Shown here: positions 2,648 through 24,000 of the stretch, one piece after another | How positions within the stretch are numbered: position 1 is the stretch's first letter | Layout: each line of letters opens with the position of its first letter | Assembly (NCBI GenBank): GCA_041651575.1 | Contig: JBAZJB010000001.1 | Location: 742,450-766,449, forward strand | Direction: 5' to 3' | DNA from: Candidatus Nanoarchaeia archaeon | Lineage (GTDB): Archaea > Nanobdellota > Nanobdellia > SCGC-AAA011-G17 > JAFCDX01 | DNA length: 24,000 bases | Translations under genes and position numbers: made by a program | The notes under the pieces: generated by a model | What the model was told of the DNA's origin: nothing | Seen by the model: the letters and a program-made list of their open reading frames with translations, nothing else | The model's database searches: none

Positions 2648-2709
2648 ATATAATTTTCTTTAATAAAAAGAAGCTTGAAATGAGCTCTAAATAGTGTTAA
2701 GAAGTCTCG

Positions 2710-2719
2710 TAAAGCTTTA
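2710..2719. promoter_or_regulatory. 10-bp perfect palindrome TAAAGCTTTA, copy 2, about 30 nt upstream of the TATA box of the 2797 gene
   Basis: Identical 10-mer, 72 bp from copy 1, in the same 173-bp divergent intergenic region. Confidence 0.4.
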
Positions 2720-2741
2720 AATTTTTTGAAAAGAAAGTTTC

Positions 2742-2749
2742 TTTATATA
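2742..2749 (+). promoter_or_regulatory. TATA box (TTTATATA) for the 2797 gene, which also has a GGAGG Shine-Dalgarno at 2786..2790
   Basis: The TATA lies about 50 nt upstream of the ATG, and GGAGG lies 6 nt before the ATG. This is one of the few leadered genes in the window. Confidence 0.45.
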
Positions 2750-2796
2750 TAAGGTTATTAATCTAATATTAATAAAAATTTTGATGGAGGCAATAA

Positions 2797-3600
2797 ATGA
2801 AAAAGATATTTAGTATTTTTGTAACACTTTTGTTAGTCTTGATTACATTAAGCACAGTTTTAGCTGAAGATACAAATGAAATTGTAACAGAAGCTTCTAC
2901 TATAACAGAAACTGAAAATCTAACACCTAGCGAAACAACTGAATTGACTGATTCAATAGATGATGCTACTACAAATGAAACAGAAGAAGTAGGAGCAACA
3001 CCAGATCAAAAAGTTGCTTATGGTTGGAAAAGATTTGCAGAAAAGTTAAGCTTATTGATGACAAGAGGTAAAGAAAAGCAAGCAGAAAAGAAATTACAAT
3101 TTGCTCAAAGAAGATTATCAGAAATGAAAGAAATGGCAAAGAAAGGAGATTTGAAATCTTTGGCTAAAGCTGAAGGATTCCATGCTCAACTTGTCCAAGA
3201 ACTTTCTGAATTAAAAGAGCAATTTGCTAAAGAAAATGTAACAAAAGCTGAAAGATTAGAATATAATTTGCAAAAGCATATTACTGTTCTTGATATAATT
3301 CAGCAAAAACTGCAAGCTAAAAATGTTACAGCTCCGGGTATTGAGAAAACTTTGACTAGGCTTAAAGCAGCAGAAGAAAAATATAACAACATGAGCGAAG
3401 TTAAGCAAGAAAGAATCGCTAAAGAAGTTTCTAGATTAAATAAAGAAGAGAAAAGAGATAGAAACCAAAAAAGAATAGCAAATGAAACTGTTGTTGGAGA
3501 ACAAGTGACTGCTGAGGTTGAGAATCAAGAACAAAATTCTGGTGAAGACACAGAAATACAAGAACAAAATCAGCAACAAACCCAAGCAGGGCAACAATAA
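2797..3600 (+). CDS. secreted coiled-coil protein (signal peptide, acidic T/E-rich region, K/E/Q-rich helical body, Q/E-rich tail)
   Basis: Signal peptide is MKKIFSIFVTLLLVLITLSTVLA. Heptad-like K/E/L-rich sequence follows. I am not confident of any family name. Confidence 0.65.
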   Translation: MKKIFSIFVTLLLVLITLSTVLAEDTNEIVTEASTITETENLTPSETTELTDSIDDATTNETEEVGATPDQKVAYGWKRFAEKLSLLMTRGKEKQAEKKLQFAQRRLSEMKEMAKKGDLKSLAKAEGFHAQLVQELSELKEQFAKENVTKAERLEYNLQKHITVLDIIQQKLQAKNVTAPGIEKTLTRLKAAEEKYNNMSEVKQERIAKEVSRLNKEEKRDRNQKRIANETVVGEQVTAEVENQEQNSGEDTEIQEQNQQQTQAGQQ

Positions 3601-3606
3601 ATTTAC

Positions 3607-3626
3607 TTTTTTTCTTTTTATTTTTT
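3607..3626 (+). terminator. oligo-T tract (T7-C-T5-A-T6), a likely archaeal intrinsic terminator
   Basis: T runs begin 7 nt after the stop at 3598..3600. Archaeal RNA polymerase terminates at oligo-T stretches. Confidence 0.45.
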
Positions 3627-3663
3627 ATATCGAAAGATTTTTAAATAGAGTATCTATTACATA

Positions 3664-5076
3664 GTGATAAAAATGGCAGAACAAGACAATAATAATAAAA
3701 GTAACAGTATACTTTATTCTTCAGAGAACCCTATCATTGATATTCTTAAACAATTATCTGAGGTTGGAACTAATAGAGAAAAATTAGCGGTTTTAGAAGA
3801 TAGACTTACAACCTATCCTGTAGAAGATAAAATTGGAAGAGAAAGATTAGAAACCTATAAAATGGATTTGGTATCTGATATAGAACAAGCAGAAGTTGAG
3901 GATAATATAAAAAAACTTAAACGTATAAGAAAAAAATCGGCTGAAAGTTATAATTTTCAACATGTTCATCCTTCAATTATTAATTCTTATGAAGAATATA
4001 GGAAGGCACATACTTTTTCTATGCAGGGAGATAGTTTAGATCAATTACCTATAGAAGAAGCTGATAACTTATTACATTTTTTTATGATAAATGATAATAA
4101 ATTTTTTGAATCTGTAATTGAAAAGTATGTTGGGGCTGTTTCTGAAGATATAAAGTCAGTTAAATTATTAAAAAAAATATCTGAACAATCTTTAACAGAC
4201 GCTTTAGCTACAAAAGAAATTTTTGAAGTTTTATCCTTTAAAGAATTAACTCCGGATATGTTTCCTTGGCCAAATGGAGAGCAATTTAAAAAATTAAATG
4301 AAGAAAATTTAGAGAGATTAAGGGGGCTAATTAAAAAAGGATTAGAAGTGTCTTCACATTATTTATACTTATTAAATAATTTAAATGAAAAAAAAGCTAT
4401 AGAAAAAATAAAAGAAAATGATTCTCAAAAAATAACTTCTTTACCTCAATCTATCGTATTTGATCAACATAAAAGATTTTATGAAGGTATAAATAGAGTA
4501 AATAATTTTTGTTTAGACCTTTTAAGTGGAAAAGAAGATAGTACATCTAATTCAAATTTAGAGAGAATTTTAAAGTTAGAAAATTTTATAGATGTTTGTG
4601 AACCTTATCTTAATCTTTTATTAAAACAAGAAAAATATGGGGATGCTACTCTTATAGGGGCAATTTCTTTTTATAAACAAAATAATGTAGTTAAATTAAT
4701 AGAAGAAACTAAATCTAAAATTAGAGAAGCAACAACCCACATACAAATAAATAAAATAAAACAAATTTATACTCCCTATTATGATAAAAATTCAAGGCCC
4801 TATCTGTCTTTTTTAATAGAAAAATACCAATCTAAATATTTAAAAATATTGGGTGAAGTAAAGATAGATTATTCTAAATTAGATCCTATTATAGACCAAG
4901 TTTCTTTTAAACTTTTATACGCTTTCCATATGGGAGATAAAAAACTTTATGACGAAGTAGAAGATATTGTACATAGTACTCCAATACCAGGAAAACTAAA
5001 AATAAATGGAAATGATATAACTTTTAATTTTTTATTTTTGGATTTAATAAGAGGATTTAAACCTTCTTCCAAATAA
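3664..5076 (+). CDS. hypothetical cytoplasmic protein (470 aa, helical, no recognised motif)
   Basis: Long uninterrupted ORF. The track start is GTG 3664, and an alternative ATG lies at 3673. TATA-like TTTTAAATA is at 3638..3646. The 3' end overlaps the convergent cysS by 20 nt. Confidence 0.6.
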   Translation: MIKMAEQDNNNKSNSILYSSENPIIDILKQLSEVGTNREKLAVLEDRLTTYPVEDKIGRERLETYKMDLVSDIEQAEVEDNIKKLKRIRKKSAESYNFQHVHPSIINSYEEYRKAHTFSMQGDSLDQLPIEEADNLLHFFMINDNKFFESVIEKYVGAVSEDIKSVKLLKKISEQSLTDALATKEIFEVLSFKELTPDMFPWPNGEQFKKLNEENLERLRGLIKKGLEVSSHYLYLLNNLNEKKAIEKIKENDSQKITSLPQSIVFDQHKRFYEGINRVNNFCLDLLSGKEDSTSNSNLERILKLENFIDVCEPYLNLLLKQEKYGDATLIGAISFYKQNNVVKLIEETKSKIREATTHIQINKIKQIYTPYYDKNSRPYLSFLIEKYQSKYLKILGEVKIDYSKLDPIIDQVSFKLLYAFHMGDKKLYDEVEDIVHSTPIPGKLKINGNDITFNFLFLDLIRGFKPSSK

Positions 5077-6445
5077 TTCCTTTTTTAGTATCTTCAAGAA
5101 CAAAACCCTTTTCTTTTAATTTATTTCTAATTTCATCAGCCTTTTTCCAGTCTTTTTCTTTTCTATATTTTTCTCTTTTATCCATTAATTCTTTAATCTC
5201 TTTTGGAATAGCTTCTTTTTTAGAAATTAAATTTAAACCAAGAACTTGATCAAATTCATTTAATGTTTCTAAGATTTCTTTTACTTCTTTTTTACTTGGG
5301 TCTAATTTGTTTACTTCATTAATAAAACTAAATATAGAACCAAGTGCATTAGCAATATTTAAATCATCATCTAATGATTCTTCAAATTCTTTTTTAACAT
5401 TTTTTATCAAGCTAGAAACTTTTTTACTATCTTTATCTGATTTTACAAAATTTAACCTATTTATAAATTCATTAAGTCTTTTTAGCGAGTTTCTAGCAGA
5501 ATCAAGTCCTTCAAATGTAAAATTAAATGGAATTCTATAATGTGTGCTTAATAAAGAATATCTTATTTCTCTTCCAGAATACCCTTTTGCAAGAACATCT
5601 CTTAATGTATAAAAATTACCTAAAGATTTGGACATTTTTTTACCATCAACTAAAATAAATTCATTATGCAACCAATAATTTACAAATTTCTTTCTAGTTG
5701 CACATTCTGATTGAGCAATTTCATTTTCGTGATGAGGAAATATTAAATCAATTCCACCTGTATGAATATCAAAGGTTTCTCCAAGATATTTCATAGCCAT
5801 TGCAGAACATTCTATATGCCATCCAGGTCTTCCTTTACCAATTTCAGTTTCCCAAAAAACATCTCCATCTAATTTATCATAGAATTTCCATAAACAAAAA
5901 TCTTGAACATTTTCTTTATCATATTCATCTTTTTTAACACGTTCAGACGCTCCTGCTTCTAAATCATCAAACTTTAAATGAGCTAATTTTCCATATTCTT
6001 TATCTTTAGAAATTTTAAAATAAATTCCGTCATCTGTTTTGTAAGCATAACCTTTATTTAATAATTTTTTAATTATAGAAACCATTTCTTTGATATGTTC
6101 TGTAGCTCTTGGATATTTGAAAGATTCTTTAATATTTAAAGTTTTAATGTCTTCAAAGAATGCTTTTTCATATTTAGAAGTAAATTGTTTCAAAGATAAT
6201 TTTTCTTTTTGTGAATCTCTTATGGTTTTATCATCAACATCTGTTACATTAGTAATATGTTTAATTTTATATCCTTTATATTCTAAATATCTATGTAATA
6301 AATCTGCAAATACAAAAGCTCTAAAATTACCTATATGTCCATAATTATAAACAGTTAATCCACAAGAATATATTCCAACGTTTTTATTTTTAATTGGTTT
6401 AAATTCCTCTTTTTTTCTTGTTAAGGTATTGAATAGTTTTATCAT
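5057..6445 (-). CDS. cysS: cysteinyl-tRNA synthetase
   Basis: Class I synthetase with a HIGH-type motif (GHIGNFRAF), KMSKS (GKKMSKSLGNF) and CysRS-typical blocks (YSCGLTVYNYGHIGN, WHIECSAM, DIHTGGIDLIFPHHENE). Confidence 0.95.
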   Translation of the reverse strand: MIKLFNTLTRKKEEFKPIKNKNVGIYSCGLTVYNYGHIGNFRAFVFADLLHRYLEYKGYKIKHITNVTDVDDKTIRDSQKEKLSLKQFTSKYEKAFFEDIKTLNIKESFKYPRATEHIKEMVSIIKKLLNKGYAYKTDDGIYFKISKDKEYGKLAHLKFDDLEAGASERVKKDEYDKENVQDFCLWKFYDKLDGDVFWETEIGKGRPGWHIECSAMAMKYLGETFDIHTGGIDLIFPHHENEIAQSECATRKKFVNYWLHNEFILVDGKKMSKSLGNFYTLRDVLAKGYSGREIRYSLLSTHYRIPFNFTFEGLDSARNSLKRLNEFINRLNFVKSDKDSKKVSSLIKNVKKEFEESLDDDLNIANALGSIFSFINEVNKLDPSKKEVKEILETLNEFDQVLGLNLISKKEAIPKEIKELMDKREKYRKEKDWKKADEIRNKLKEKGFVLEDTKKGIIWKKV

Positions 6446-6992: not shown

Positions 6993-7054
6993 ATAAATTA
7001 AGAGTTTAAAATTATATTTAAAGGTTTCTATAACTTCAAAATTAAAAAAATAAG

Positions 7055-9564: not shown

Positions 9565-11496
9565 ATGAAAAAGAGTAATTTGTTGATTTTATTTGTTTTA
9601 ATTTTTTCTTTGGCTTTTATGTCTGCTTGTACTGTTCAATTATCTGGTAAAAATTTACCTAAAATTAATCCTAGTTGTTGTGTTGTTACAGATGTTAATA
9701 ATGGAGGTATTTTAGGTTGCGTTCAAGGTTTTAATTTAAAAAATAGTCAATCAGAATGTTATAATAAATTTTTTTCTTTAGGTAATACACAATGGGCTTC
9801 TGATTACTGTGATAAATTACCTCAATGTCAAGATACTACTTACAGTTGTATGGGTTATGATTACTCCTCAAATATAACTTACCAGTTGGTTAATATGGAG
9901 GGAAGATGTGTAGATAATACTAATTCATATCTATGTTCAAATGGAACAATTTCTTTAATTTCGACTAACGGATGCGTAACTCCTCAAGGATGTTTAGATT
10001 CAGATGATGGAATAAATATTTATGTGAAAGCAAAAGGAGGACTCTTGATAAATGGAACTTGGGGTTATAATGAAGAAATGTGTTACGATTCAAATTTTGG
10101 TATTTATAATGATGCTCCAGAAGGATGTACAGATTATACAACTGGTCATGGAAATGGTTTATGTGTACTAGAGATGTTTTGTGATGCCCTTAATCAACAA
10201 CAAACTAGAATTTACAAATGTCCAAATGGTTGTTCAAATGGGGCATGTTTGTCCGTAACTAATGAAACATGTACAGATACCGATGGAGGAATTGATTATT
10301 TAAATTTTGGAGTTATTTCTAATAATACTATGGTTGGAACATTTTCAGATAGTTGTATTAGTTCTTTAGATGGGGACGGTAGTAATGTATATGAAGGAGA
10401 TAGAATTGTAGAATATTTTTGTGGTAATGGCGGAGAATGGTCTTTTAGTTTGGTTACTTGTGAATATGGTTGTAGAAATGGAACATGCGTAAAACAATAT
10501 GATCCCTCTTTACAAAAGTATTATGTAAATCCTAGCTCTAATTTATGTACTGATACAGATAGCTCAATTAATTATTATGGTTACTTTACTAAAGGAAATA
10601 TTACTCATTATAATCCTTATAATAAAGTTAATGAATCCTTTGGAGATGGTTGTATGAATGATCCAATTGAGCAGAAGAATGTTTATGAAGGGGATTATTT
10701 AGGAGAAGCTAATTGTAGGGGAAGTTTTTATGATAATTTCATTAATTATAGTGCATTAAGTGTAGATATTTTCAAATGTCCAAATGGATGTGTAAATGGA
10801 GCATGTTTTTTAACCAATTCTAAAGTAATATCTTGTGATAGATTAATTTATCATCCAGAACAGAATGATAATGAACCGACAATTTTAGATAGAATTAATT
10901 TCTGTAAAAATAATGGTTTATATTATGCAGGAATTATGTTAGAAGGAGATCAATTCCATTGGTATGGGAATTGTTTAGATGATCCAAACAATGGGTGGGG
11001 TTATATAACTGATTTAAGAATTTGTAATTATAAATCTTGTGTAGATTCAGATAATGGAATAAATTATAGTATAAAAGGAGTTGTACAAGGATATGCAAAT
11101 AGTCCTTCGATACCTTTTAATCTTACTGATACTTGTTTACTTGAAGATGGCTCAAATGTATTAGCTGGTCCAAATATTGTGGAAGGTATTTGCGAAGATG
11201 GTTTCTGGGCATTTGGAAATATTTATACTTGTCCAAATGGATGTTATGATGGAGTTTGTATTACTCAATGCCAGTATACTTTAACTAACTGTCCTTCTTG
11301 GTCATTATGTTCTTCATCGGGCGGTCAATATTGTGCTGCAACAGGATGTAATGTTTTATTGATGAGAAGATGTTCTCCAAGCACATGTCCACAACAGTAT
11401 ACAGAAACAACTTGTCCTTCATGGACAGCTTGTGATCAAACTGGATATAAATATTGTGCAGTCGTAGGATGTTCTTCTTTAAGTAAAAAGTGTTAA
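9565..11496 (+). CDS. cysteine-rich secreted or lipid-anchored protein with four six-cysteine CxD(S/T)DxG...CxxGCxxGxC modules and a C-terminal tandem CPSW repeat
   Basis: Signal peptide with a lipobox-like FMSA|C (MKKSNLLILFVLIFSLAFMSAC). About 60 Cys in 643 aa. Modules are detailed in the next two features. Many N-x-S/T sequons. Confidence 0.85.
   Translation: MKKSNLLILFVLIFSLAFMSACTVQLSGKNLPKINPSCCVVTDVNNGGILGCVQGFNLKNSQSECYNKFFSLGNTQWASDYCDKLPQCQDTTYSCMGYDYSSNITYQLVNMEGRCVDNTNSYLCSNGTISLISTNGCVTPQGCLDSDDGINIYVKAKGGLLINGTWGYNEEMCYDSNFGIYNDAPEGCTDYTTGHGNGLCVLEMFCDALNQQQTRIYKCPNGCSNGACLSVTNETCTDTDGGIDYLNFGVISNNTMVGTFSDSCISSLDGDGSNVYEGDRIVEYFCGNGGEWSFSLVTCEYGCRNGTCVKQYDPSLQKYYVNPSSNLCTDTDSSINYYGYFTKGNITHYNPYNKVNESFGDGCMNDPIEQKNVYEGDYLGEANCRGSFYDNFINYSALSVDIFKCPNGCVNGACFLTNSKVISCDRLIYHPEQNDNEPTILDRINFCKNNGLYYAGIMLEGDQFHWYGNCLDDPNNGWGYITDLRICNYKSCVDSDNGINYSIKGVVQGYANSPSIPFNLTDTCLLEDGSNVLAGPNIVEGICEDGFWAFGNIYTCPNGCYDGVCITQCQYTLTNCPSWSLCSSSGGQYCAATGCNVLLMRRCSPSTCPQQYTETTCPSWTACDQTGYKYCAVVGCSSLSKKC
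9991..11259 (+). repeat. four divergent protein-level copies of the six-cysteine module (nt 9991..10248, 10270..10488, 10546..10803, 11038..11259)
   Basis: Module starts are CLDSDDGINIY, CTDTDGGIDY, CTDTDSSINY and CVDSDNGINY. Module ends are CPNGCSNGAC, CEYGCRNGTC, CPNGCVNGAC and CPNGCYDGVC. Coordinates were checked against TGT codons at 9991, 10270, 10546 and 11038. Confidence 0.8.
11269..11493 (+). repeat. two tandem ~36-aa cysteine repeats (CQYTLTNCPSWSLCSSSGGQYCAATGCNVLLMRRC and CPQQYTETTCPSWTACDQTGYKYCAVVGCSSLSKKC)
   Basis: Direct reading of the C-terminal 75 aa shows the shared pattern T-x-CPSW-x-x-C-x(4-5)-YCA-x-x-GC-x(6)-C. Confidence 0.75.
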
Positions 11497-11609: not shown

Positions 11610-12701
11610 ATGAATATCAAAGAAAGATACAAACTAAAAAAAACCTTAAAAGAATTAGAAGGAATTAGGGGAAGACATACAGAATTGGTTTCTGTTTATG
11701 TTCCTGCAGGTTATGAATTAGTTAAAATTTTAAATCATTTATTCCAAGAGCAAGGAACTGCTTCTAATATTAAAGATAAAACAACAAGAATGCATGTTAT
11801 AGATTCTATTGAAAGAATGATACAACATTTAAGATTATTTAAAAGAACTCCAATAAATGGATTAGCTGTTTTTGCAGGTAATGCTTCTGAAAAAGAAAAT
11901 AAAGTCGATATTAAAGTTTGGTCTATAGAACCTCCTGAACCAATTAATATGCGAGTATATAGGTGTGATCAAACTTTTTTATTAGAACCTTTAATAGATA
12001 TGATTAATATTAAAGAAACATTTGGTTTAATAGTTCTTGATAAAAGAGAAGCCAATGTTGGATTATTAAGAGGAACAAATATTAAAAATTTAGTTACAAT
12101 GACTTCAGGTGTTCCTGGAAAAGTAAAAACTGGAGGTTTCTCACAGCAAAGATACTCAAGATTAAGAGATGAGGCAGCTCACGAATTTTATAAAAGAGTT
12201 GCAGAATTTGCAAATAAAGAATTTTTTAACAAGCCAGACTTAAAAGGAGTATTGATTGGAGGACCAGGAACAACTAAGCAAGAATTTGTAGATGGAAATT
12301 ATTTATTAACTGAAATAAGAAAAAAAATAATTGCGGTAAAAGATTTATCTTATACTGGAGAATCTGGTTTGCATGATTTAGTAGAAAGAAGTCACGAAGT
12401 TCTTGCAGAAGAAGAAATAACTGTGGAAAAAGAAATTATGCAAAAGTTTTTTGAAAAATTAGCAAGAGAAGAAGAAAAAACAACTTATGGATTAGTTGAA
12501 ACTAAAAAAGCATTAGCTTTAGGTGCCGTAGATACTTTACTCTTATCTGAAAATTTACCTGATAAACAGATAGAAGAACTTGAAGAAGAAGCAGAAAAAT
12601 ATAAAACAGAAGTAAAGATGATTTCTACTGAATCAAGAGAAGGAGTACAATTAAAAGACATTGGTGGAGTAGCAGCTATACTCAGATATCCTATAAAATA
12701 A
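11610..12701 (+). CDS. prf1: peptide chain release factor aRF1 homologue, compact (363 aa), with GGF in place of GGQ
   Basis: Matches the a/eRF1 pattern: GRHTELVSVYVP, TASNIKDKTTR (NIKS-type loop), YRCDQTF (YxCxxxF) and PGKVKTGGFSQQRYSRLRDEAAHEFYKRVAE (GGQ region). Codons 12132..12140 read GGA GGT TTC. Confidence 0.85.
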   Translation: MNIKERYKLKKTLKELEGIRGRHTELVSVYVPAGYELVKILNHLFQEQGTASNIKDKTTRMHVIDSIERMIQHLRLFKRTPINGLAVFAGNASEKENKVDIKVWSIEPPEPINMRVYRCDQTFLLEPLIDMINIKETFGLIVLDKREANVGLLRGTNIKNLVTMTSGVPGKVKTGGFSQQRYSRLRDEAAHEFYKRVAEFANKEFFNKPDLKGVLIGGPGTTKQEFVDGNYLLTEIRKKIIAVKDLSYTGESGLHDLVERSHEVLAEEEITVEKEIMQKFFEKLAREEEKTTYGLVETKKALALGAVDTLLLSENLPDKQIEELEEEAEKYKTEVKMISTESREGVQLKDIGGVAAILRYPIK

Positions 12702-12711
12702 AAACAAAAAG

Positions 12712-12719
12712 TTTAAATA
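12712..12719 (+). promoter_or_regulatory. TATA box TTTAAATA for the 12742/13153 gene pair
   Basis: The centre lies about 26 nt upstream of ATG 12742. The 13153 gene follows after only 18 nt. Confidence 0.45.
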
Positions 12720-12741: not shown

Positions 12742-13134
12742 ATGGATAACAGAGACAAAGTGGTGATTGGTTCTGCGATATTAGTTGTTTTAGCAGTATT
12801 AATTGTTTTAAATAATACTGTAAATTATAATACTGGTCAAGCTATGAGAGCAGGTAATTGTTATGATACAGATAGTGGAGATAATAAATATGCAAGAGGA
12901 ACCCTTTCAGGCCATATATACCCTTCACAAGAACAAATTAATGAAAGGGACTATTGTGTATATTATGAAGATGATCCAGGAAAAAAAGATGTTTTAAAAG
13001 AATATTATTGTTTAAAAGATGTTTCTGAAAATTGTTTAGATAATGATCCAGATACAGATTGCGATAAATCTGCATATTCATCTAAATTTTTGATTTGTGA
13101 ATATGGTTGCAAGAACGGAGCTTGCGAGAGATAA
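12742..13134 (+). CDS. small secreted six-cysteine-module protein, paralogue 1 (130 aa, two extra Cys)
   Basis: Signal or anchor MDNRDKVVIGSAILVVLAVLIVL...NTG|QA. Module motifs are CYDTDSGDNKYARGTLSG...RDYC...LKEYYC...ICEYGCKNGAC. Confidence 0.85.
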   Translation: MDNRDKVVIGSAILVVLAVLIVLNNTVNYNTGQAMRAGNCYDTDSGDNKYARGTLSGHIYPSQEQINERDYCVYYEDDPGKKDVLKEYYCLKDVSENCLDNDPDTDCDKSAYSSKFLICEYGCKNGACER

Positions 13135-13152
13135 TTTTATTTTAATTTAAAA

Positions 13153-13503
13153 ATGAAACTATTTGAAGGTTTTACAAGAAAATTAGTAATAGTTTTTGTA
13201 ATATTGTCTTTATATCTTTTATTTTTTTCAACAGGAATTTTTGATATGGTTACAGGATATAATCTTAAAGTAGCACATTGTGAAGATACAGATAAAGGTT
13301 CTATTTATGTAAAAGGAACTATTTCTGGGCAGACAGATATTAATGCGGCTATTGAACCAAAAACAGATTATTGTTCTTTAGAAGATAAAGAAATTTTAAA
13401 AGAATTTCAATGTGATCTTTTAACACCAAATAATTGGAGATCTTTTCCAATAAATTGTACTAATTATGGTATGAGATGTGTAGATGGTGCTTGTATAAAT
13501 TAG
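13153..13503 (+). CDS. small secreted six-cysteine-module protein, paralogue 2 (116 aa)
   Basis: Hydrophobic N-terminus LVIVFVILSLYLLFF...VTG|YN. Module motifs are CEDTDKGSIYVKGTISG...TDYC...LKEFQC...CTNYGMRCVDGAC. Confidence 0.8.
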   Translation: MKLFEGFTRKLVIVFVILSLYLLFFSTGIFDMVTGYNLKVAHCEDTDKGSIYVKGTISGQTDINAAIEPKTDYCSLEDKEILKEFQCDLLTPNNWRSFPINCTNYGMRCVDGACIN

Positions 13504-13508
13504 AAATA

Positions 13509-13515
13509 TTTATAA
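13509..13515 (+). promoter_or_regulatory. TATA box (TTTATAA) for the 13538 gene
   Basis: It lies within GAAATATTTATAAG, about 26 nt upstream of the ATG. Confidence 0.4.
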
Positions 13516-13529
13516 GTACCTTTCTTTAT

Positions 13530-13628
13530 ATTAAATTATGGATACAAAAGACAAAACTATAATCGGATTAGTAGTTTTGCTCGTTTTAGCAGTACTTTTG
13601 GCATCTGGTATTTTAACTACAGGAAAAG
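13530..13628 (+). repeat. 99-bp block 100% identical to 13925..14023 (8 nt upstream of the ATG plus codons 1-30 and one further nt)
   Basis: Base-by-base comparison at a 395-nt offset. Identity starts at 13530/13925 and ends at 13628/14023. Confidence 0.9.
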
Positions 13629-13858
13629 CTATCAAAGTTTCTTGTGAAGATACAGATGGCGATAGTATTTATTTGCAAGGAGCTGTAAGTGGAACTGATT
13701 CTGGAGGAAGTGCTTTTGGACCTTATGCGGATTTTTGTTCTGTAGAAGATTCAAATATTTTAGTTGAATACACTTGTGATCAATTCCAAGCAGGTGGGTA
13801 TAAGAGAGAAACTAAATCTTGCGGAAAAGGCTGCGAAAACGGAGCATGTAAACAATAA
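13538..13858 (+). CDS. small secreted six-cysteine-module protein, paralogue 3 (106 aa)
   Basis: MDTKDKTIIGLVVLLVLAVLLASGILTTG|K. Module motifs are CEDTDGDSIYLQGAVSG...ADFC...LVEYTC...CGKGCENGAC. Confidence 0.85.
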   Translation: MDTKDKTIIGLVVLLVLAVLLASGILTTGKAIKVSCEDTDGDSIYLQGAVSGTDSGGSAFGPYADFCSVEDSNILVEYTCDQFQAGGYKRETKSCGKGCENGACKQ

Positions 13859-13865
13859 ATTAAAA

Positions 13866-13886
13866 TTTTTTTATTTTTCTTTTTTT
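13866..13886 (+). terminator. oligo-T tract (T7-A-T5-C-T7) after paralogue 3
   Basis: T runs begin 8 nt after stop 13856..13858. Confidence 0.45.
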
Positions 13887-13905
13887 AATTTAATTTAGAA
13901 ACATT

Positions 13906-13913
13906 TAAATATA
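13906..13913 (+). promoter_or_regulatory. TATA box TTTAAATA for the 13933 gene
   Basis: It lies within GAAACATTTAAATATAG, and its centre is about 24 nt upstream of the ATG. Confidence 0.45.
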
Positions 13914-13924
13914 GCTTATTCTTA

Positions 13925-14023
13925 ATTAAATTATGGATACAAAAGACAAAACTATAATCGGATTAGTAGTTTTGCTCGTTTTAGCAGTACTTTTGGCATC
14001 TGGTATTTTAACTACAGGAAAAG
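13925..14023 (+). repeat. second copy of the 99-bp identical block (see 13530..13628)
   Basis: Same comparison as for 13530..13628. Confidence 0.9.
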
Positions 14024-14259
14024 TAACTAACGCATTTTCTTGTTCAGATACAGATGTTGGAAGTAGATTTATACAAGGAACAATAACAGGATCTGTAGGT
14101 GGAAATTCTTTTGAACTTACAGATTACTGTAATGCGGATGGAACTTTAAAAGAATATTCCTGTGGTATTAATAGATGGTATTATGGGGATACAGACGAAG
14201 AAGGTCAACCTGCATTGATTTGTCCAAATGGCTGCGAAAACGGAGCATGCCTACAATAA
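13933..14259 (+). CDS. small secreted six-cysteine-module protein, paralogue 4 (108 aa)
   Basis: The first 30 aa are identical to paralogue 3. Module motifs are CSDTDVGSRFIQGTITG...TDYC...LKEYSC...ICPNGCENGAC. Confidence 0.85.
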   Translation: MDTKDKTIIGLVVLLVLAVLLASGILTTGKVTNAFSCSDTDVGSRFIQGTITGSVGGNSFELTDYCNADGTLKEYSCGINRWYYGDTDEEGQPALICPNGCENGACLQ

Positions 14260-14266
14260 ATTAAAA

Positions 14267-14287
14267 TTTTTATTTTTTATTTTTTTT
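14267..14287 (+). terminator. oligo-T tract (T5-A-T6-A-T8) after paralogue 4
   Basis: T runs begin shortly after stop 14257..14259 and are homologous to the tract at 13866..13886. Confidence 0.45.
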
Positions 14288-14303
14288 AATTTATATAGAA
14301 ATA

Positions 14304-14311
14304 TTTATAAA
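14304..14311 (+). promoter_or_regulatory. TATA box (TTTATAAA) for the 14333/14730 gene pair
   Basis: It lies within GAAATATTTATAAATA, about 25 nt upstream of ATG 14333. The 14730 gene starts 1 nt after the 14333 gene's stop. Confidence 0.4.
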
Positions 14312-14332
14312 TAATTAGATATTTAAATAAAT

Positions 14333-14728
14333 ATGAAAATGAAGAAAAAAGAGGATGTTAGAGATTATATTATTTTAGTTTTAATCATTTCTGTTTGCGC
14401 ATTTTTTATATTGGGTTTTATAAATTTTACAACAGGAAATGTTCTTTTAAAAAGAAGTTGTAATGATACAGATGGAGGATATAATCCTTTTGTAAAAGGT
14501 ACAGTGACCGCAGTAAGCAAAGGACGTTATGCTTTTGAAGAAAAAACAGATTATTGTGTATATATGCAAGTTGGACCAAATGAAGAAAATAAATATCCTG
14601 CAGTAAAAGAATATTTCTGTGGCTCAGATCCAGAAAGTACCAAATCTCAAGATTTTACTTATAGCCAATATAATGATAAATTAGTTATTTGTAATAATGG
14701 TTGTAAAGACGGAGCCTGCATAGAATAA
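14333..14728 (+). CDS. small secreted six-cysteine-module protein, paralogue 5 (131 aa)
   Basis: Signal or anchor YIILVLIISVCAFFILGFINFTTG|N. Module motifs are CNDTDGGYNPFVKGTVT...TDYC...VKEYFC...ICNNGCKDGAC. Confidence 0.85.
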   Translation: MKMKKKEDVRDYIILVLIISVCAFFILGFINFTTGNVLLKRSCNDTDGGYNPFVKGTVTAVSKGRYAFEEKTDYCVYMQVGPNEENKYPAVKEYFCGSDPESTKSQDFTYSQYNDKLVICNNGCKDGACIE

Positions 14729-14729
14729 A

Positions 14730-15098
14730 ATGGCAAAAAAATTCAACAAAGAAATTTTATTATCGGCTTTATTATTAATAACTTTAGTTCTTTTATTAGT
14801 TTTTGGAGTAACTCAATTTACTACAACAAGTAATGTTCTTGTTGGTTGCGATAAATCTTGTGAAGATAATGATCAAGGAAGTATTAATTTAAAAGGAACT
14901 GTTTCAGTAAGAGGAGATGATTGTAATTTGCGTGAAAGAACAGATTATTGTATAGATGAATATAGATTAAAAGAATATAATTGTGATTCTACCAATTCTT
15001 TAAATTTCCAAACAATGATAGTTTATTGTGAAGAAAAATGTTTTAATGGTGTTTGTTTAACTGAAAAACAGACTTTAGAATACCAAGGTTTAGAGTAA
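14730..15098 (+). CDS. small secreted six-cysteine-module protein, paralogue 6 (122 aa, divergent, extra Cys)
   Basis: Signal or anchor ILLSALLLITLVLLLVFGV. Module motifs are CEDNDQGSINLKGTVS...TDYC...LKEYNC...YCEEKCFNGVC, followed by a short C-terminal tail. Confidence 0.8.
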   Translation: MAKKFNKEILLSALLLITLVLLLVFGVTQFTTTSNVLVGCDKSCEDNDQGSINLKGTVSVRGDDCNLRERTDYCIDEYRLKEYNCDSTNSLNFQTMIVYCEEKCFNGVCLTEKQTLEYQGLE

Positions 15099-20356: not shown

Positions 20357-22321
20357 GTGGTACATATTAAAAAAGATAGAGAATTGAGTGTTTTTATATT
20401 TGCAATATTTGTATTCTCATTCTTGGTTTTTATGTTAATGAAACCTTCTATTACTGGGAACGTGGTAGCAATTCCTGAGATGATAGATATTAATACCGGA
20501 AGTTCTTTATCTGATATAAATAATGTTTCTCTTAGTTTTAATGCAGGAGAGTCTTTTTCTTGTGATCATATATTGGTATTAAATATAAGTGATTCTTCAG
20601 ACCAACAAATTTATTCCGATGATGTTACTTTAGCAGTTTTTGTTTCTGCTGCAAAACCTACTAGTAGTTGTACTGGTGATCCAAGTACATACACTCCTGG
20701 TGGAACAAGTCAAATTTTAAATTCTAGTATTTCTATTTTTTCTGGTTTAACTTCTATTAATTTTAATACTGCAGGAACATATACTATTAGTTTGAATTTA
20801 TCTGATGCAATCGGATTACAAAAAAATTTTGGTGAATCTAGTTTTACAGTTTCTGCTCCAGTTGTTTCTAATCCTCCAGAAATAACAGATGTTTCTTTTA
20901 CTAACTTAACTGGTTCAAGTAAATTTAGAGTAAATGGTTATGTAAATTGTTCTTCTATTGTTAAAGATGATAGTAGTACTATTAATGTTAAATATATTTT
21001 GTGGAATAAAACAAGTTTTTCTAATCAATTTAAAACAGGAGATATTTCTTGTTCTGGGGATTCTTGGGTAAGTGGAAAATCTTGTAATGTTTCTGTACAA
21101 ATAACCGAAAGTCATATTGGAGATTGGATATGTACTATTAGTGCTAATGATACTGTTGGAGGAACTTATGCAAATTCAAGTGTTATAGAAATGTTAAATT
21201 CTCCTCCTATATTAAAAGATACTTTTGATAATGATTCTTGGAGGAAAAATACCAATGAAAGTTTAGATTTGGATGACTATTTTTCAGATCCAGATGGACA
21301 AACATTAATTTATAATTTTACAGGAAATAATTCTGTTTCTATTTTTATAGATTCTGATAAAGAAGTAAAATTCGTTCCAAAAAAAGATTGGGTAGGAACT
21401 AATAATATAAGATTTAGTGCTAATGATAGTTTAGGATTGTACGTTGTCGGTAATTTATTTTTAATAAATGTTACAAATTCTACTTCATCTTGTTCTGAAA
21501 CTTGGAATTGTACAAATTGGACTTCTTGTGTTAACAATGTTAGAACAAGAACTTGTGTTGATGAGGAAAATTGTGGAACTTTAACAGGAAGACCTGCAAT
21601 TAATGAATCTTGTACTACTTCTACTTGTGGAATAAACGATGGATGTTCTATATCTTGCGTTGGAGGAGATTCAGATTGTTCTTGCTCTTTAGAAAATGGT
21701 TATGTTTGTGGAATTAATCAAACTTGTAGTAGTTCTACTTTATTACATTCAGGATCAGGAATCTGCTGTTCTATTCCTTGTACTTCTACTGTTTTAGCAG
21801 GAACAACTACAAATGTTAATTTAGGTACTAATAACAATCTTGAAAATAAATCAAATAAGGTACTTATTGGAGTAAGTTTAATTTCTGGAATAGTTTTCAT
21901 TATGATTTTAGTAATTGTAATTTATACTTATGTACAAAGAAAAAGAGCAGTTGTTGAAGAATCAAGTCCGATAGTTCAACCAAAAGAAGTTGCTCCTCAA
22001 ACTTTTGTAAAAGAAATAAAACAAGAACCTACAATAAAAGTAAGGCCTGTTAATGTTGAAAAAATGAAAGAATATATTCAAAAATCTTTAAATGCAAAAG
22101 TTCCTTTGAAGAATATAAAAGAGGGATTAGAAAGAGCAGGATGGCCACAATCTGATATTGAAAGAGAATTAAGTTTAGCAAGATTATCAAACTATATTCA
22201 AGTTAAAATAAATCAAGGTATTCCAAAAGAACAAATTATAAGTTCTCTAAGAATAAAAGGGTGGAAAGAGGAACAAATTAAGGAAGCTTTGAAAGAAACT
22301 AGAATAAAACCTTTATTTTGA
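20357..22321 (+). CDS. large type I membrane surface protein: signal, three Ig/cadherin-like beta domains, Cys-rich stalk, TM helix, cytoplasmic tail with two GW helical repeats
   Basis: Signal is VFIFAIFVFSFLVFMLM...ITG|NVV. Domain linkers are SNPPEITDVSF and NSPPILKDTF. A cadherin-like motif LDLDDYFSDPDGQTLIYNF is present. The Cys-rich region (aa 379..475) reads SCSETWNCTNWTSCVNNVRTRTCVDEENCGT... The TM helix is VLIGVSLISGIVFIMILVIVIYTYV. About 20 N-x-S/T sequons. The GTG start is uncertain. Confidence 0.8.
   Translation: MVHIKKDRELSVFIFAIFVFSFLVFMLMKPSITGNVVAIPEMIDINTGSSLSDINNVSLSFNAGESFSCDHILVLNISDSSDQQIYSDDVTLAVFVSAAKPTSSCTGDPSTYTPGGTSQILNSSISIFSGLTSINFNTAGTYTISLNLSDAIGLQKNFGESSFTVSAPVVSNPPEITDVSFTNLTGSSKFRVNGYVNCSSIVKDDSSTINVKYILWNKTSFSNQFKTGDISCSGDSWVSGKSCNVSVQITESHIGDWICTISANDTVGGTYANSSVIEMLNSPPILKDTFDNDSWRKNTNESLDLDDYFSDPDGQTLIYNFTGNNSVSIFIDSDKEVKFVPKKDWVGTNNIRFSANDSLGLYVVGNLFLINVTNSTSSCSETWNCTNWTSCVNNVRTRTCVDEENCGTLTGRPAINESCTTSTCGINDGCSISCVGGDSDCSCSLENGYVCGINQTCSSSTLLHSGSGICCSIPCTSTVLAGTTTNVNLGTNNNLENKSNKVLIGVSLISGIVFIMILVIVIYTYVQRKRAVVEESSPIVQPKEVAPQTFVKEIKQEPTIKVRPVNVEKMKEYIQKSLNAKVPLKNIKEGLERAGWPQSDIERELSLARLSNYIQVKINQGIPKEQIISSLRIKGWKEEQIKEALKETRIKPLF
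22064..22291 (+). repeat. two tandem ~37-40-aa cytoplasmic repeats (xxxYIQxxxNxxxPxxxIxxxLxxxGWxxxxIxxxL)
   Basis: MKEYIQKSLNAKVPLKNIKEGLERAGWPQSDIEREL and LSNYIQVKINQGIPKEQIISSLRIKGWKEEQIKEAL, read directly from the translation. Confidence 0.7.
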
Positions 22322-22362: not shown

Positions 22363-24000
22363 ATGAAAAAGAGTTTGATTGTACTTTCTTTATTATTAAT
22401 ATTAGTAACTCCAATTGTATTTGCTTTTTCAATAAATGATTTTTTATCAAATTTATTTGGAACTAATTCAGATAATACAAGAACTTTAGAAGCGGTTACT
22501 TATTCTTGCATAAAATCAGATGGTTCTAGTTCTAGTTATTGGAATTATAATGTAAAAGGTACCATTAGTAAAATTACAGTAACTAGTTCTTCGTTTGGTT
22601 CTAGTACTACAACTCAAGCAATAGGTTCTGATTATTGTCTTAAAGATATTGGGCAAGATACTACAGGTACTCTTTTAGGAGAACATTATTGTGCAAATTC
22701 ATACACTTTTCAAATTGGTGCTGTAGATTGTTCTGATTATGGTAAAGTATGTAGTGATGGAAAATGTGTTACATCTTCAACTTCTCCTAGTGGAGGAGGA
22801 AGTACAATAACTCCAGTTACTTTATCTTCAACTATTACAACTTCTTGTGTTGGAACTAAATCAAAAGCAACTATATCTTTTAGTAGTGGAAGTGCTCCTA
22901 GTAATGGAAAATATAGTATTGATCTTTTTAAAGGAGAAATAAGTAATGCAGATCCTTCTACATCAACATATTATGCTGTAGAAGTAACAGATGATACATC
23001 AAAAGCAACCGAAACTTTTACACTTAATGAATTTAATATAAAAGTAATAGGTCCTGGAGATGTAGCTGGAAATGTACAACCATTATCTCCAAGTTATGCT
23101 TTAGAATCTGGACAAAAATATGTTGTTTGGGTATGGAATGGAGCTTTGTCAAATAAAGTAGCATTTACTGCTAAGGACTGTAGTGGAAGTGGAACAACTT
23201 CGGCAGAAGCATTTACTGTTACTGAAGATGATTGTGTTAATGCCCCTATTAACGGAGATAGTAATATTGTAAATGGTGTAGTTAGCAGAATAGGAGAATG
23301 TGGTTCTGATGGAAAAACTTTAAAATTTTGTTATAATAAAAAATTATATACAGAAACTTGTGCATATGGATGTGAGTTAAAATCATATGGGGCTTTTTGT
23401 AAAACTAAAATACCTATGTATACTACAAATACTTGCTCTTATCTTGCTAGTGACACAGGATACACAAATAGTCAATGTGTAACTTCTCCTACTCAAGAAT
23501 GTGCTGTGGTAGGTTATGATGTTAATCTTGGAAGTGCTGCTGATTGTACTAAATTAGATAAAAAATGTTGTGCAAATACATCTTCAACTTCTCCTAGTGG
23601 AGGAGGAAGTACAATAACTCCAGTTACTTTATCTTCAACTATTACAACTTCTTGTGTTGGAACTAAATCAAAAGCAACTATATCTTTTAGTAGTGGAAGT
23701 GCTCCTAGTAATGGAAAATATAGTATTGATCTTTTTAAAGGAGAAATAAGTAATGCAGATCCTTCTACATCAACATATTATGCTGTAGAAGTAACAGATG
23801 ATACATCAAAAGCAACCGAAACTTTTACACTTAATGAATTTAATATAAAAGTAATAGGTCCTGGAGATGTAGCTGGAAATGTACAACCATTATCTCCAAG
23901 TTATGCTTTAGAATCTGGACAAAAATATGTTGTTTGGGTATGGAATGGAGCTTTGTCAAATAAAGTAGCATTTACTGCTAAGGACTGTAGTGGAAGTGGA
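22363..24000 (+). CDS. large secreted repeat protein, partial (runs off the right edge): signal peptide, six-cysteine module, then repeating 269-aa units
   Basis: Not in the ORF track because no stop falls in the window. Hand translation gives MKKSLIVLSLLLILVTPIVFAFS.... A module at nt 22507..22767 reads CIKSDGSSSSYWNYNVKGTIS...SDYC...LGEHYC...CSDYGKVCSDGKC. An S/T/G linker TSSTSPSGGGSTITPVTLSS follows, then a beta-rich domain and more Cys-rich segments. The frame stays open for all 546 codons. Confidence 0.85.
   Translation, partial: MKKSLIVLSLLLILVTPIVFAFSINDFLSNLFGTNSDNTRTLEAVTYSCIKSDGSSSSYWNYNVKGTISKITVTSSSFGSSTTTQAIGSDYCLKDIGQDTTGTLLGEHYCANSYTFQIGAVDCSDYGKVCSDGKCVTSSTSPSGGGSTITPVTLSSTITTSCVGTKSKATISFSSGSAPSNGKYSIDLFKGEISNADPSTSTYYAVEVTDDTSKATETFTLNEFNIKVIGPGDVAGNVQPLSPSYALESGQKYVVWVWNGALSNKVAFTAKDCSGSGTTSAEAFTVTEDDCVNAPINGDSNIVNGVVSRIGECGSDGKTLKFCYNKKLYTETCAYGCELKSYGAFCKTKIPMYTTNTCSYLASDTGYTNSQCVTSPTQECAVVGYDVNLGSAADCTKLDKKCCANTSSTSPSGGGSTITPVTLSSTITTSCVGTKSKATISFSSGSAPSNGKYSIDLFKGEISNADPSTSTYYAVEVTDDTSKATETFTLNEFNIKVIGPGDVAGNVQPLSPSYALESGQKYVVWVWNGALSNKVAFTAKDCSGSG
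22770..23193 (+). repeat. copy 1 of a perfect direct repeat of at least 424 bp (807-bp period)
   Basis: Line-by-line comparison with 23577..24000 found no mismatch. The repeat starts at T22770/T23577 and is still identical at the window end. Confidence 0.9.
23577..24000 (+). repeat. copy 2 of the perfect direct repeat, truncated by the window edge
   Basis: See 22770..23193. The 807-nt offset equals 269 codons and is in frame. Confidence 0.9.

Follow-up and report, generated by a model that had tools for sequence, protein, structure and literature searches.

Cysteine-rich modules that repeat within extracellular proteins are of a familiar kind. The LDL-receptor class A (PF00057) and calcium-binding EGF (PF07645) domains of eukaryotes are small and extracellular, contain six cysteines and an acidic cluster, and are found as single copies or in long tandem series whose loops vary between copies. 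The PKD (PF00801/PF18911), CARDB (PF07705) and Big/Ig-like domains serve as beta-rich repeats in very large surface proteins. DPANN archaea and bacteria of the Candidate Phyla Radiation (CPR) are thought to depend on physical contact with a host, and their surface molecules are almost all 'hypothetical proteins'. Here we report an analysis of a 24,000-nucleotide (nt), AT-rich stretch (GC content 21–33%) of a Candidatus Nanoarchaeia archaeon genome (contig JBAZJB010000001.1, positions 742,450 to 766,449; hereafter referred to as the window), which contains a tandem array of six small genes, P1–P6, each encoding one copy of a six-cysteine module. The domain defined by our analysis comprises at least 9,000 sequence clusters and has an invariant six-cysteine, four-acid signature; neither Pfam nor NCBIfam has an entry for it. 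Although cysteine-rich repeat modules are familiar, this family is unnamed, very large and without a detectable solved relative, and it extends over two domains of life, inside the radiations of ultra-small symbionts. The module is not special to the P1–P6 array; its chief use is as a repeat unit in giant surface proteins.

The array consists of six consecutive plus-strand open reading frames (ORFs) at 12742–15098, which encode proteins of 130, 116, 106, 108, 131 and 122 amino acids (aa), respectively. Each protein has a charged N-terminus, a hydrophobic helix of 17–23 residues and one six-cysteine module of 69–92 aa. A profile that defines the unnamed DPANN/CPR module (profile A4), built from family members unrelated to P1–P6, matches every one of the six proteins with E values of 1e-8 to 1e-14, far above chance level; the match in P1 is split in two (E 1e-8 and 8e-5). 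The feature boundaries come from the ORFs and the profile matches, together with a computed cysteine map for P1, P2, P5 and P6. P1 (12742..13134, plus strand) has a 17-residue hydrophobic run and the sequence TGQA, and its module (12856–13131) contains an extra cysteine pair, C98 and C107, inside the C3–C4 insert. P2 (13153..13503, plus strand; module 13276–13500) has the variant tail C-x6-C-x4-C. P3 (13538..13858, plus strand; module 13640–13855) and P4 (13933..14259, plus strand; module 14038–14256) are identical to WC413_04550 and WC413_04555, respectively, proteins encoded on a 766-kb contig of a Candidatus Nanoarchaeia metagenome-assembled genome (MAG) at NCBI. P5 (14333..14728, plus strand; module 14456–14725) has long C2–C3 and C3–C4 segments and a seventh cysteine within its hydrophobic helix, and P6 (14730..15098, plus strand; module 14856–15062) has an extra cysteine pair, C40 and C65, and a 13-residue C-terminal tail.

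The six paralogues are 29–58% identical to one another. Among the 14 invariant columns of their alignment are the six cysteines and, in P1 numbering, the Asp residues D42, D44 and D70, the Glu residue E87 and the Gly residues G53 and G126. The cysteines are separated by 28–31 (C1–C2), 10–20 (C2–C3), 14–28 (C3–C4), 3–6 and 4 residues. An earlier reading of the bare sequence (the original prediction) had already given the coordinates and lengths of the six ORFs exactly, and its hand-counted cysteine spacings are reproduced exactly by the cysteine map; the two paralogues that it credited with an extra cysteine pair are P1 and P6, with one pair each. Its general motif plan also stands. By contrast, each of its four literal motif strings is broken in one or two paralogues: P3 fails the first, P1 reads RDYC, P5 reads VKEYFC, and P2 and P6 have variant tails.

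An exhaustive profile search covered 1.84 billion cluster representatives (clusters at 50% identity). At E<=1e-3 it matched 9,368 proteins, of which 3,327 remained at E<=1e-10 and 464 at E<=1e-30. Among the family proteins, 5–26 tandem copies are common, and the best-scoring proteins contain 4–26 matched stretches each and extend to 3,760 aa. The best 150 proteins yielded 1,004 full modules of 57–110 aa (median 68 aa), 88% of which have exactly six cysteines, and in a broader extraction all six framework cysteines are present in 1,011 of 1,020 modules. The framework cysteines occupy profile positions 2, 30, 41, 53, 57 and 62 and are present in all six window proteins, and positions D4, D6, G8, G15, D28, E38 and G60 are 89–98% conserved among the 1,020 modules and invariant or nearly so in P1–P6. 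Cysteine losses occur in only 9 of the 1,020 modules, with one double loss (C2 and C5), too few for the disulfide connectivity to be inferred. Most family proteins have a hydrophobic leader at the N-terminus, and their partner domains (Dockerin_1, S_layer_C, CARDB, PKD, Ig-like, Flg_new_2, DUF5667 and Kazal) are all of extracellular or cell-surface types.

Neither P1–P6 nor a 643-aa window protein with several module copies (described below) has a credible match in Pfam, NCBIfam, PADLOC or PHROGs; PADLOC gave no match at E<=1, and PHROGs gave matches only at E>=0.05, mostly to the transmembrane (TM) segment. When 119 diverse modules were scanned singly against Pfam and NCBIfam (E<=1), no family recurred, and the weak maxima were ADAMTS_CR_2 (4 of 119) and Myxo_Cys_RPT (5 of 119), at E>=0.01. 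No Pfam model covers the repeats even in proteins with 10–15 module copies. Profile searches of PDB sequences (profiles A2 and A4) reached a best E of 0.8, with chance Sushi-like strings. The source databases label all relatives 'hypothetical protein', and a full-text literature search found no description of the module. The original prediction could assign the module to no named family, and this is borne out by Pfam, NCBIfam, PADLOC, PHROGs, PDB sequences and Foldseek searches of PDB and BFVD, all of which came back empty.

We examined the distribution of the module by scanning one genome per GTDB species for the tail string CPNGCSNGAC, which gave 75 loci, 61 of which contain full modules according to a hidden Markov model (HMM) check. 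The module-bearing archaea are mostly Woesearchaeota, Pacearchaeota, Nanoarchaeota, Iainarchaeum and Aenigmatarchaeota, and the module-bearing CPR bacteria comprise Saccharibacteria, Peribacteria, Buchananbacteria, Kuenenbacteria, Staskawiczbacteria, Paceibacterota and Parcubacteria. At two CPR loci, both on long contigs, the neighbours include GreA, Obg and a D-Ala-D-Ala carboxypeptidase, which marks these loci as genuinely bacterial. Together, the profile family search, the tail scan, the HMM check and the CPR loci confirm the statement, in the original prediction, that similar strings occur in DPANN and CPR proteins. The Myxococcota, Acidobacteriota and Proteobacteria loci lack the module and matched the tail string by chance. 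A viral origin was rejected, as viral contigs gave no match to the canonical tail string. An independent tandem array lies at 2651–5357 of a contig hereafter referred to as L084 (JGI 3300025150, Ga0210057_1000545), with four plus one single-module small genes adjoining Nop56, MazG and fibrillarin. Each of its proteins has a hydrophobic helix, with a different leader type (..YLF..G.VAIVAIVALVLN..LEGA..). As this array belongs to another lineage and genomic context, the architecture recurs. A metagenome scan with P5 found only three distant loci.

An AlphaFold2 run with a 119-sequence alignment for the P3 ectodomain gave a model with a mean predicted local distance difference test score (pLDDT) of 95.8 and a predicted template modelling score (pTM) of 0.81. 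In this model, the module is predicted to be all-beta and to consist of five strands and, at the C-terminus, a short hairpin spanning C-x3-C-x4-C. The model of P1, the most divergent paralogue, has the same strand order (pLDDT 82.1), and its confidence is low only in the paralogue-specific insert with the extra cysteine pair (pLDDT 53–61). The shared strand order of the two models supports the fixed scaffold with variable segments that had been proposed from the sequence and the consistent fold expected of it. A Foldseek search against PDB and BFVD returned no match, with best E values of 3–5 (in PDB, best E 4.9 and TM-score below 0.35).

The original prediction had likened the acidic start of the module to a DxDxDG-type calcium-binding loop. 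The canonical loop is not found: the family consensus, C-x-D-[ST]-D-G-G, has two acidic residues, not three, and position 5 of the loop is Gly or variable, the P1–P6 sequences being DTDSGD, DTDKGS, DTDGDS, DTDVGS, DTDGGY and DNDQGS, respectively. The other two conserved acidic residues, D28 and E38, are found further along the profile, 22 and 32 positions past D6. A metal site nevertheless appears plausible from the sequences, because the four acidic positions (89–98% conserved) are nearly as conserved as the cysteines.

The array locus is arranged in the order ValRS, eRF1, array, ScpB, multi-pass membrane protein, GT2 glycosyltransferase and onward. The conservation in related genomes anticipated by the original prediction is observed, as the eRF1–array–ScpB locus is present in three more genomes, hereafter L001 (GCA_028716945.1; five array copies), L006 (a Woesearchaeota RIFCSP MAG; three copies) and L083 (three copies), giving four Woesearchaeota/Nanoarchaeia genomes in all with the six-copy window. 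A distance tree resolves the colinear orthology groups P1–Q1, P2–Q2–R1, P3/P4–Q3–R2, P5–Q5 and P6–Q6–R3, which imply that an ancestral three-gene array grew to five and then to six genes. P1 is 82% identical to its orthologue Q1 in L001, with a ratio of non-synonymous to synonymous rates (omega, dN/dS) of 0.23; P2 has the orthologues Q2 (66%) and R1 in L006 (omega 0.48), P3 has Q3 (71%), and P6 has Q6 (86%) and R3. P5 is the best-conserved member (Q5, 87%; omega 0.14). At the syntenic loci, eRF1 in L083 (2738–4228) has 496 aa and an Intein_splicing match, whereas the window eRF1 has 363 aa and is intein-free, and L001 has, between its last array gene and ScpB, an unrelated 117-aa ORF without a module (12081–12434) that the window lacks.

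When the window is compared with L006, identity is 69% for eRF1 but only 36–45% for the array proteins. Between the window and L001, dN is 0.06–0.26 for the array genes and 0.01–0.06 for their neighbours at similar dS, the non-synonymous rate of the array genes being 5–20 times that of the neighbours; omega is 0.14–0.51 for the array and 0.02–0.11 for the neighbours. When the five orthologue pairs are pooled, the leader has an omega of 0.19, the profile match positions (the scaffold) 0.33 and the insert loops 0.26. Positive or diversifying selection on the loops was rejected, as loop omega is not above that of the scaffold. Chance ORFs were likewise rejected: the syntenic orthologues and the omega values of 0.14–0.51 indicate genes that are real and maintained. 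The array genes are thus fast-evolving yet under purifying selection, and this suggests that each paralogue keeps its own role. The diversified repertoire that had been proposed therefore holds between the paralogues, given their low mutual identity, but not between orthologues, where selection is purifying, the loops evolve no faster and there is no arms-race signature.

Within the array, P3 and P4 form a mosaic. A 99-nt block at 13530..13628 (plus strand), covering the leader and the TM segment and made up of 8 nt upstream of P3, codons 1–30 and 1 further nt, is 100% identical in DNA alignment to 13925–14023 in P4, and identity resumes over GCENGAC, the stop codon and the T-rich tract. The dS between P3 and P4 is 0 in the leader and 0.74 in the ectodomain (dN 0.51), and the ectodomain divergence equals or exceeds that from L001. 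The P3 and P4 leaders differ from Q3 at the same 4 synonymous sites. P4 is a lineage-specific duplicate of the P3/Q3 group, and the simplest reading is that the duplication is old and that gene conversion later homogenised the 5′ end. Among 5.8 billion clusters, nothing closely resembles the P4 ectodomain, whose best non-self matches are 59–60% identical, and the metagenomic fragment P0202 has a fourth ectodomain variant behind the same leader.

The array genes are preceded by promoter-like motifs at fixed distances. The motif AGAAAYNTTTAWA has five perfect copies in the window, three of which lie exactly 36 nt before the ATG codons of P3, P4 and P5. These B recognition element (BRE)/TATA-like motifs are AGAAATATTTATA at 13502..13514 (P3), AGAAACATTTAAA at 13897..13909 (P4) and AGAAATATTTATA at 14297..14309 (P5), all on the plus strand, and the AGAAACATTTAAA string also stands 5′ of Q3 in L001. 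A one-mismatch copy at 9529 lies 36 nt before the gene for the 643-aa protein. Allowing one mismatch at most, there are 21 matches in the window against 9.4 expected, and none of 100 shuffles reached 21. A further promoter-like AGAAAYNTTTAWA site was observed at 7017 on the minus strand, 36 nt ahead of a start codon. For P1, a TATA-like box, TTTAAATA, was read from the sequence at 12712..12719 (plus strand), 30 nt 5′ of the start codon; its spacing agrees with that of the TATA part of the motif ahead of P3, P4 and P5, making it the putative P1–P2 promoter.

P2 is probably co-transcribed with P1, because it starts only 18 nt after P1, and P6 is taken to be co-transcribed with P5, because its start lies only 1 nt after P5. 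Behind P3, a T-rich intergenic stretch at 13859..13896 (plus strand) is a putative archaeal oligo-T terminator, and near-identical stretches follow P4 and Q3. The transcription units [P1–P2], [P3], [P4] and [P5–P6] of the original prediction are therefore backed by the fixed-distance motifs, the short gaps and the T-rich tracts. Given established archaeal promoter geometry, the fixed 36-nt distance before the start codons implies that the array mRNAs would be leaderless or near-leaderless. A scan for bacterial-type hairpin terminators found none, and a sigma-70 promoter scan showed no enrichment (19 against 17.5 expected), being a bacterial model irrelevant to an archaeon.

The hydrophobic runs of 17–23 residues suffice for a membrane anchor, and an additional TM helix is found at the C-terminus of some relatives (P0007 to P0013). 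The original prediction called the array proteins secreted; with hydrophobic runs of this length, they may instead be anchored. The motif [ST]-G-x-[AVI] directly follows the hydrophobic run in 46 of 161 family proteins (29%, against about 5% expected). The array proteins P1, P3, P4 and P5 carry it, P2 has the variant TGYN, and P6 has none; accordingly, the shorter T-G motif that had been noted for the array is present in five of the six proteins and absent from P6, which reads TTTS. G-x-A agrees with the −3/−1 rule for signal peptidase I, and [ST]-G-x-[AVI] may be a signal-processing or sorting site of DPANN and CPR organisms. Elsewhere in the window, the ORF at 20357–22321 also has a motif of this type (ITGNVV).

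We propose, with confidence that is about evenly balanced, that P1–P6 are surface-displayed, disulfide-locked, probably Ca2+-stabilised binding modules; the disulfide bonds, metal site, topology and binding function are what we infer. In favour of this proposal are the conserved motifs, the size and repeat architecture of the family, the hydrophobic leaders and surface-type partner domains, the confidently predicted fold, the maintenance of the genes at a shared locus, the recurrence of the architecture in L084, the promoter-like motifs at a fixed 36-nt distance and the reported enrichment of disulfide-forming machinery in CPR (bioRxiv 10.1101/335083). Each protein would be a small surface protein that begins with a short, charged stub in the cytoplasm, followed by a single N-terminal hydrophobic helix and a brief linker in which [ST]-G-x-[AV] is usually found. 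The helix would be either a signal anchor or a Sec signal with its cleavage site close to this motif. Outside the cell, one all-beta module of 69–92 residues would be locked by three disulfides formed from the six invariant cysteines. It would probably hold one divalent cation via the four almost invariant acidic residues, namely both Asp residues that follow C1, the Asp preceding C2 and the Glu within L-x-E-Y-x-C. Between paralogues, sequence and length differ in three segments, one each within C1–C2, C2–C3 and C3–C4. P1–P6 would then form a small set of fixed composition, a single-copy version of the giant surface proteins that DPANN and CPR organisms build from many copies of the module, with a role in contact with a partner cell or with the partner's envelope polymers.

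Several points weigh against this proposal. The topology is ambiguous, as the helix, judged from its sequence, may be either a signal anchor or a cleaved signal. The acidic motif is not a canonical DxDxDG loop. Such organisms are typically anaerobic, and extracellular disulfides would need machinery to form; none was seen in the window. The lack of positive selection, with loops no faster than the scaffold among orthologues, argues against a host–parasite arms race at these loci. Housekeeping genes surround the array, and none of its neighbours is a functional partner that would suggest a ligand. Finally, the binding role is argued from architecture and domain partners, and no characterised homologue exists. 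A bolder version, in which the module is an undescribed fold and a shared DPANN and CPR attachment domain spread by interdomain gene transfer, and the arrays are minimal host-recognition sets in which the paralogue loops determine partner specificity, seems to us doubtful.

P1–P6 could instead be building blocks of the envelope, tethered modules that assemble, space or anchor S-layer or giant proteins, for example through module–module contacts, with the paralogues as structural variants. This would fit the co-occurrence of the module with S_layer_C in two relatives, its presence mostly in long tandem runs typical of stalk or spacer domains, the purifying selection without loop acceleration, and the downstream multi-pass membrane protein and GT2 glycosyltransferase in all four genomes. 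However, six diverged single-copy paralogues under promoters of their own are seldom required of structural spacers, the non-synonymous rates are 5–20 times those of the neighbours, and no direct link to an S-layer gene was seen in the window; we hold this explanation as a tentative possibility. Soluble secreted effectors, freed by cleavage at [ST]-G-x-A and acting as toxins, inhibitors or signals against a host or competitor, would likewise be small, cysteine-rich and tandemly amplified. The enrichment of [ST]-G-x-[AVI] after the hydrophobic run, the fit of G-x-A to the signal peptidase I rule, and one CPR relative that joins the module to a Kazal inhibitor domain are consistent with such a function. 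We consider it unlikely, given that hydrophobic runs of 17–23 residues are long for a cleaved signal and that the module occurs overwhelmingly as a repeat within giant, anchored surface proteins. Moreover, no immunity or export partner genes are present, the defence (PADLOC) and phage (PHROGs) libraries gave no match, and positive selection is not seen; on the lack of partner genes, library support and positive selection, identity as a toxin or defence system was rejected.

The overall plan of a charged N-terminus, a long helix and a disulfide-containing beta domain in tandem paralogues of about 110–130 aa also matches that of type IV pilins, in which case the helices would form a filament core and the beta domains its exposed heads, as major and minor pilins; the identity of the 30-residue leader across four different ectodomain variants would agree with this. 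Nevertheless, the residues before the helix (DK, RK, DK, DK, RD and KE) include no Gly or Ala at −1, and the class III cleavage motif, [KR]-[GA] directly ahead of the hydrophobic segment, is therefore missing. No Pfam pilin model matches even at E<=10, and no gene for a pilus ATPase, platform protein or prepilin peptidase lies in the window or the syntenic loci. With the cleavage motif, a profile match and assembly genes all lacking, pilin identity was rejected, and, as the module is also repeated internally in giant proteins, unlike pilin heads, we regard a pilin-like role as highly improbable. The preferred proposal thus remains that of surface-displayed binding modules.

The window also contains a multi-copy form of the module family. 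The 643-aa protein (9565..11496, plus strand), identified by its ORF and the profile, has a signal or lipobox-like N-terminus, ending in LAFMSAC, and four plus-strand module copies at 9988–10254, 10267–10494, 10543–10812 and 11035–11265 (profile E 2e-7 to 3e-15). Its C-terminus has two copies of a different cysteine motif, T-x-CPSW-x-x-C...YCA-x-x-GC. The gene lies between ValRS and eRF1 and is not at that position in L001 and L083, where the ValRS stop directly abuts the eRF1 start. The original prediction had placed further modules both here and at 22507–22767; the four copies at about 9988–11265 are upheld, but the latter segment has no profile match at E<=1 and is at best a loose relative. 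It resembles the module by eye and is the first cysteine-rich segment of an ORF at 22363–24000, which continues past the window end. The product of this ORF is a large surface-type protein that has a signal peptide and linkers rich in S/T. The ORF also contains a direct repeat with a period of 807 nt, the copies at 22770–23069 and 23577–23876 being 100% identical over at least 300 nt, which reflects either a very recent internal duplication or assembly collapse or expansion. In another part of the window, a 267-aa protein (2797–3600) contains DUF5667, which is also found in a 1,651-aa relative (P0155) with PKD repeats and the module; DUF5667 may be another component of DPANN and CPR surface proteins.

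Naming and characterising the module would annotate thousands of surface proteins in DPANN and CPR organisms. The array is modest in itself, and its value is as the easiest experimental entry to a major unannotated surface domain: with ectodomains of 70–90 residues, P1–P6 are the smallest experimentally tractable form of a family otherwise found in proteins of thousands of residues.

A comparison with known systems places the module among, yet apart from, several extracellular domains. The Myxococcus cysteine-rich repeat (TIGR04201) shares a C-x-x-G-C-x-x-G-x-C-like tail and weakly matches 5 of the 119 modules (E>=0.026), but the likeness is confined to this 10-residue tail and falls below the NCBIfam cut-off, and the Myxococcota loci with CPNGCSNGAC lack the full module. 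DxDxDG loops, as in EF-hand-like sites, thrombospondin type 3 repeats (PF02412) and dockerins (PF00404), are similar in their extracellular stretch rich in Asp-x-Asp-Gly, whereas the module has two acidic positions with the Gly shifted and no profile match to these families; dockerin occurs in one family member, as a separate domain. The PKD, CARDB and Big domains have the same use as the module and co-occur with it, but are Ig-like sandwiches without a conserved disulfide framework, whereas the module has six invariant cysteines and no Foldseek match. The LDL-receptor class A and calcium-binding EGF domains share the general design, but neither P1–P6 (E<=10) nor the 119 modules (E<=1) match them in Pfam. 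In contrast to these eukaryotic domains of about 40 aa, the module has a median length of 68 aa, is predicted to be all-beta with five strands, carries its acidic motif at the N-terminal end and is prokaryotic.

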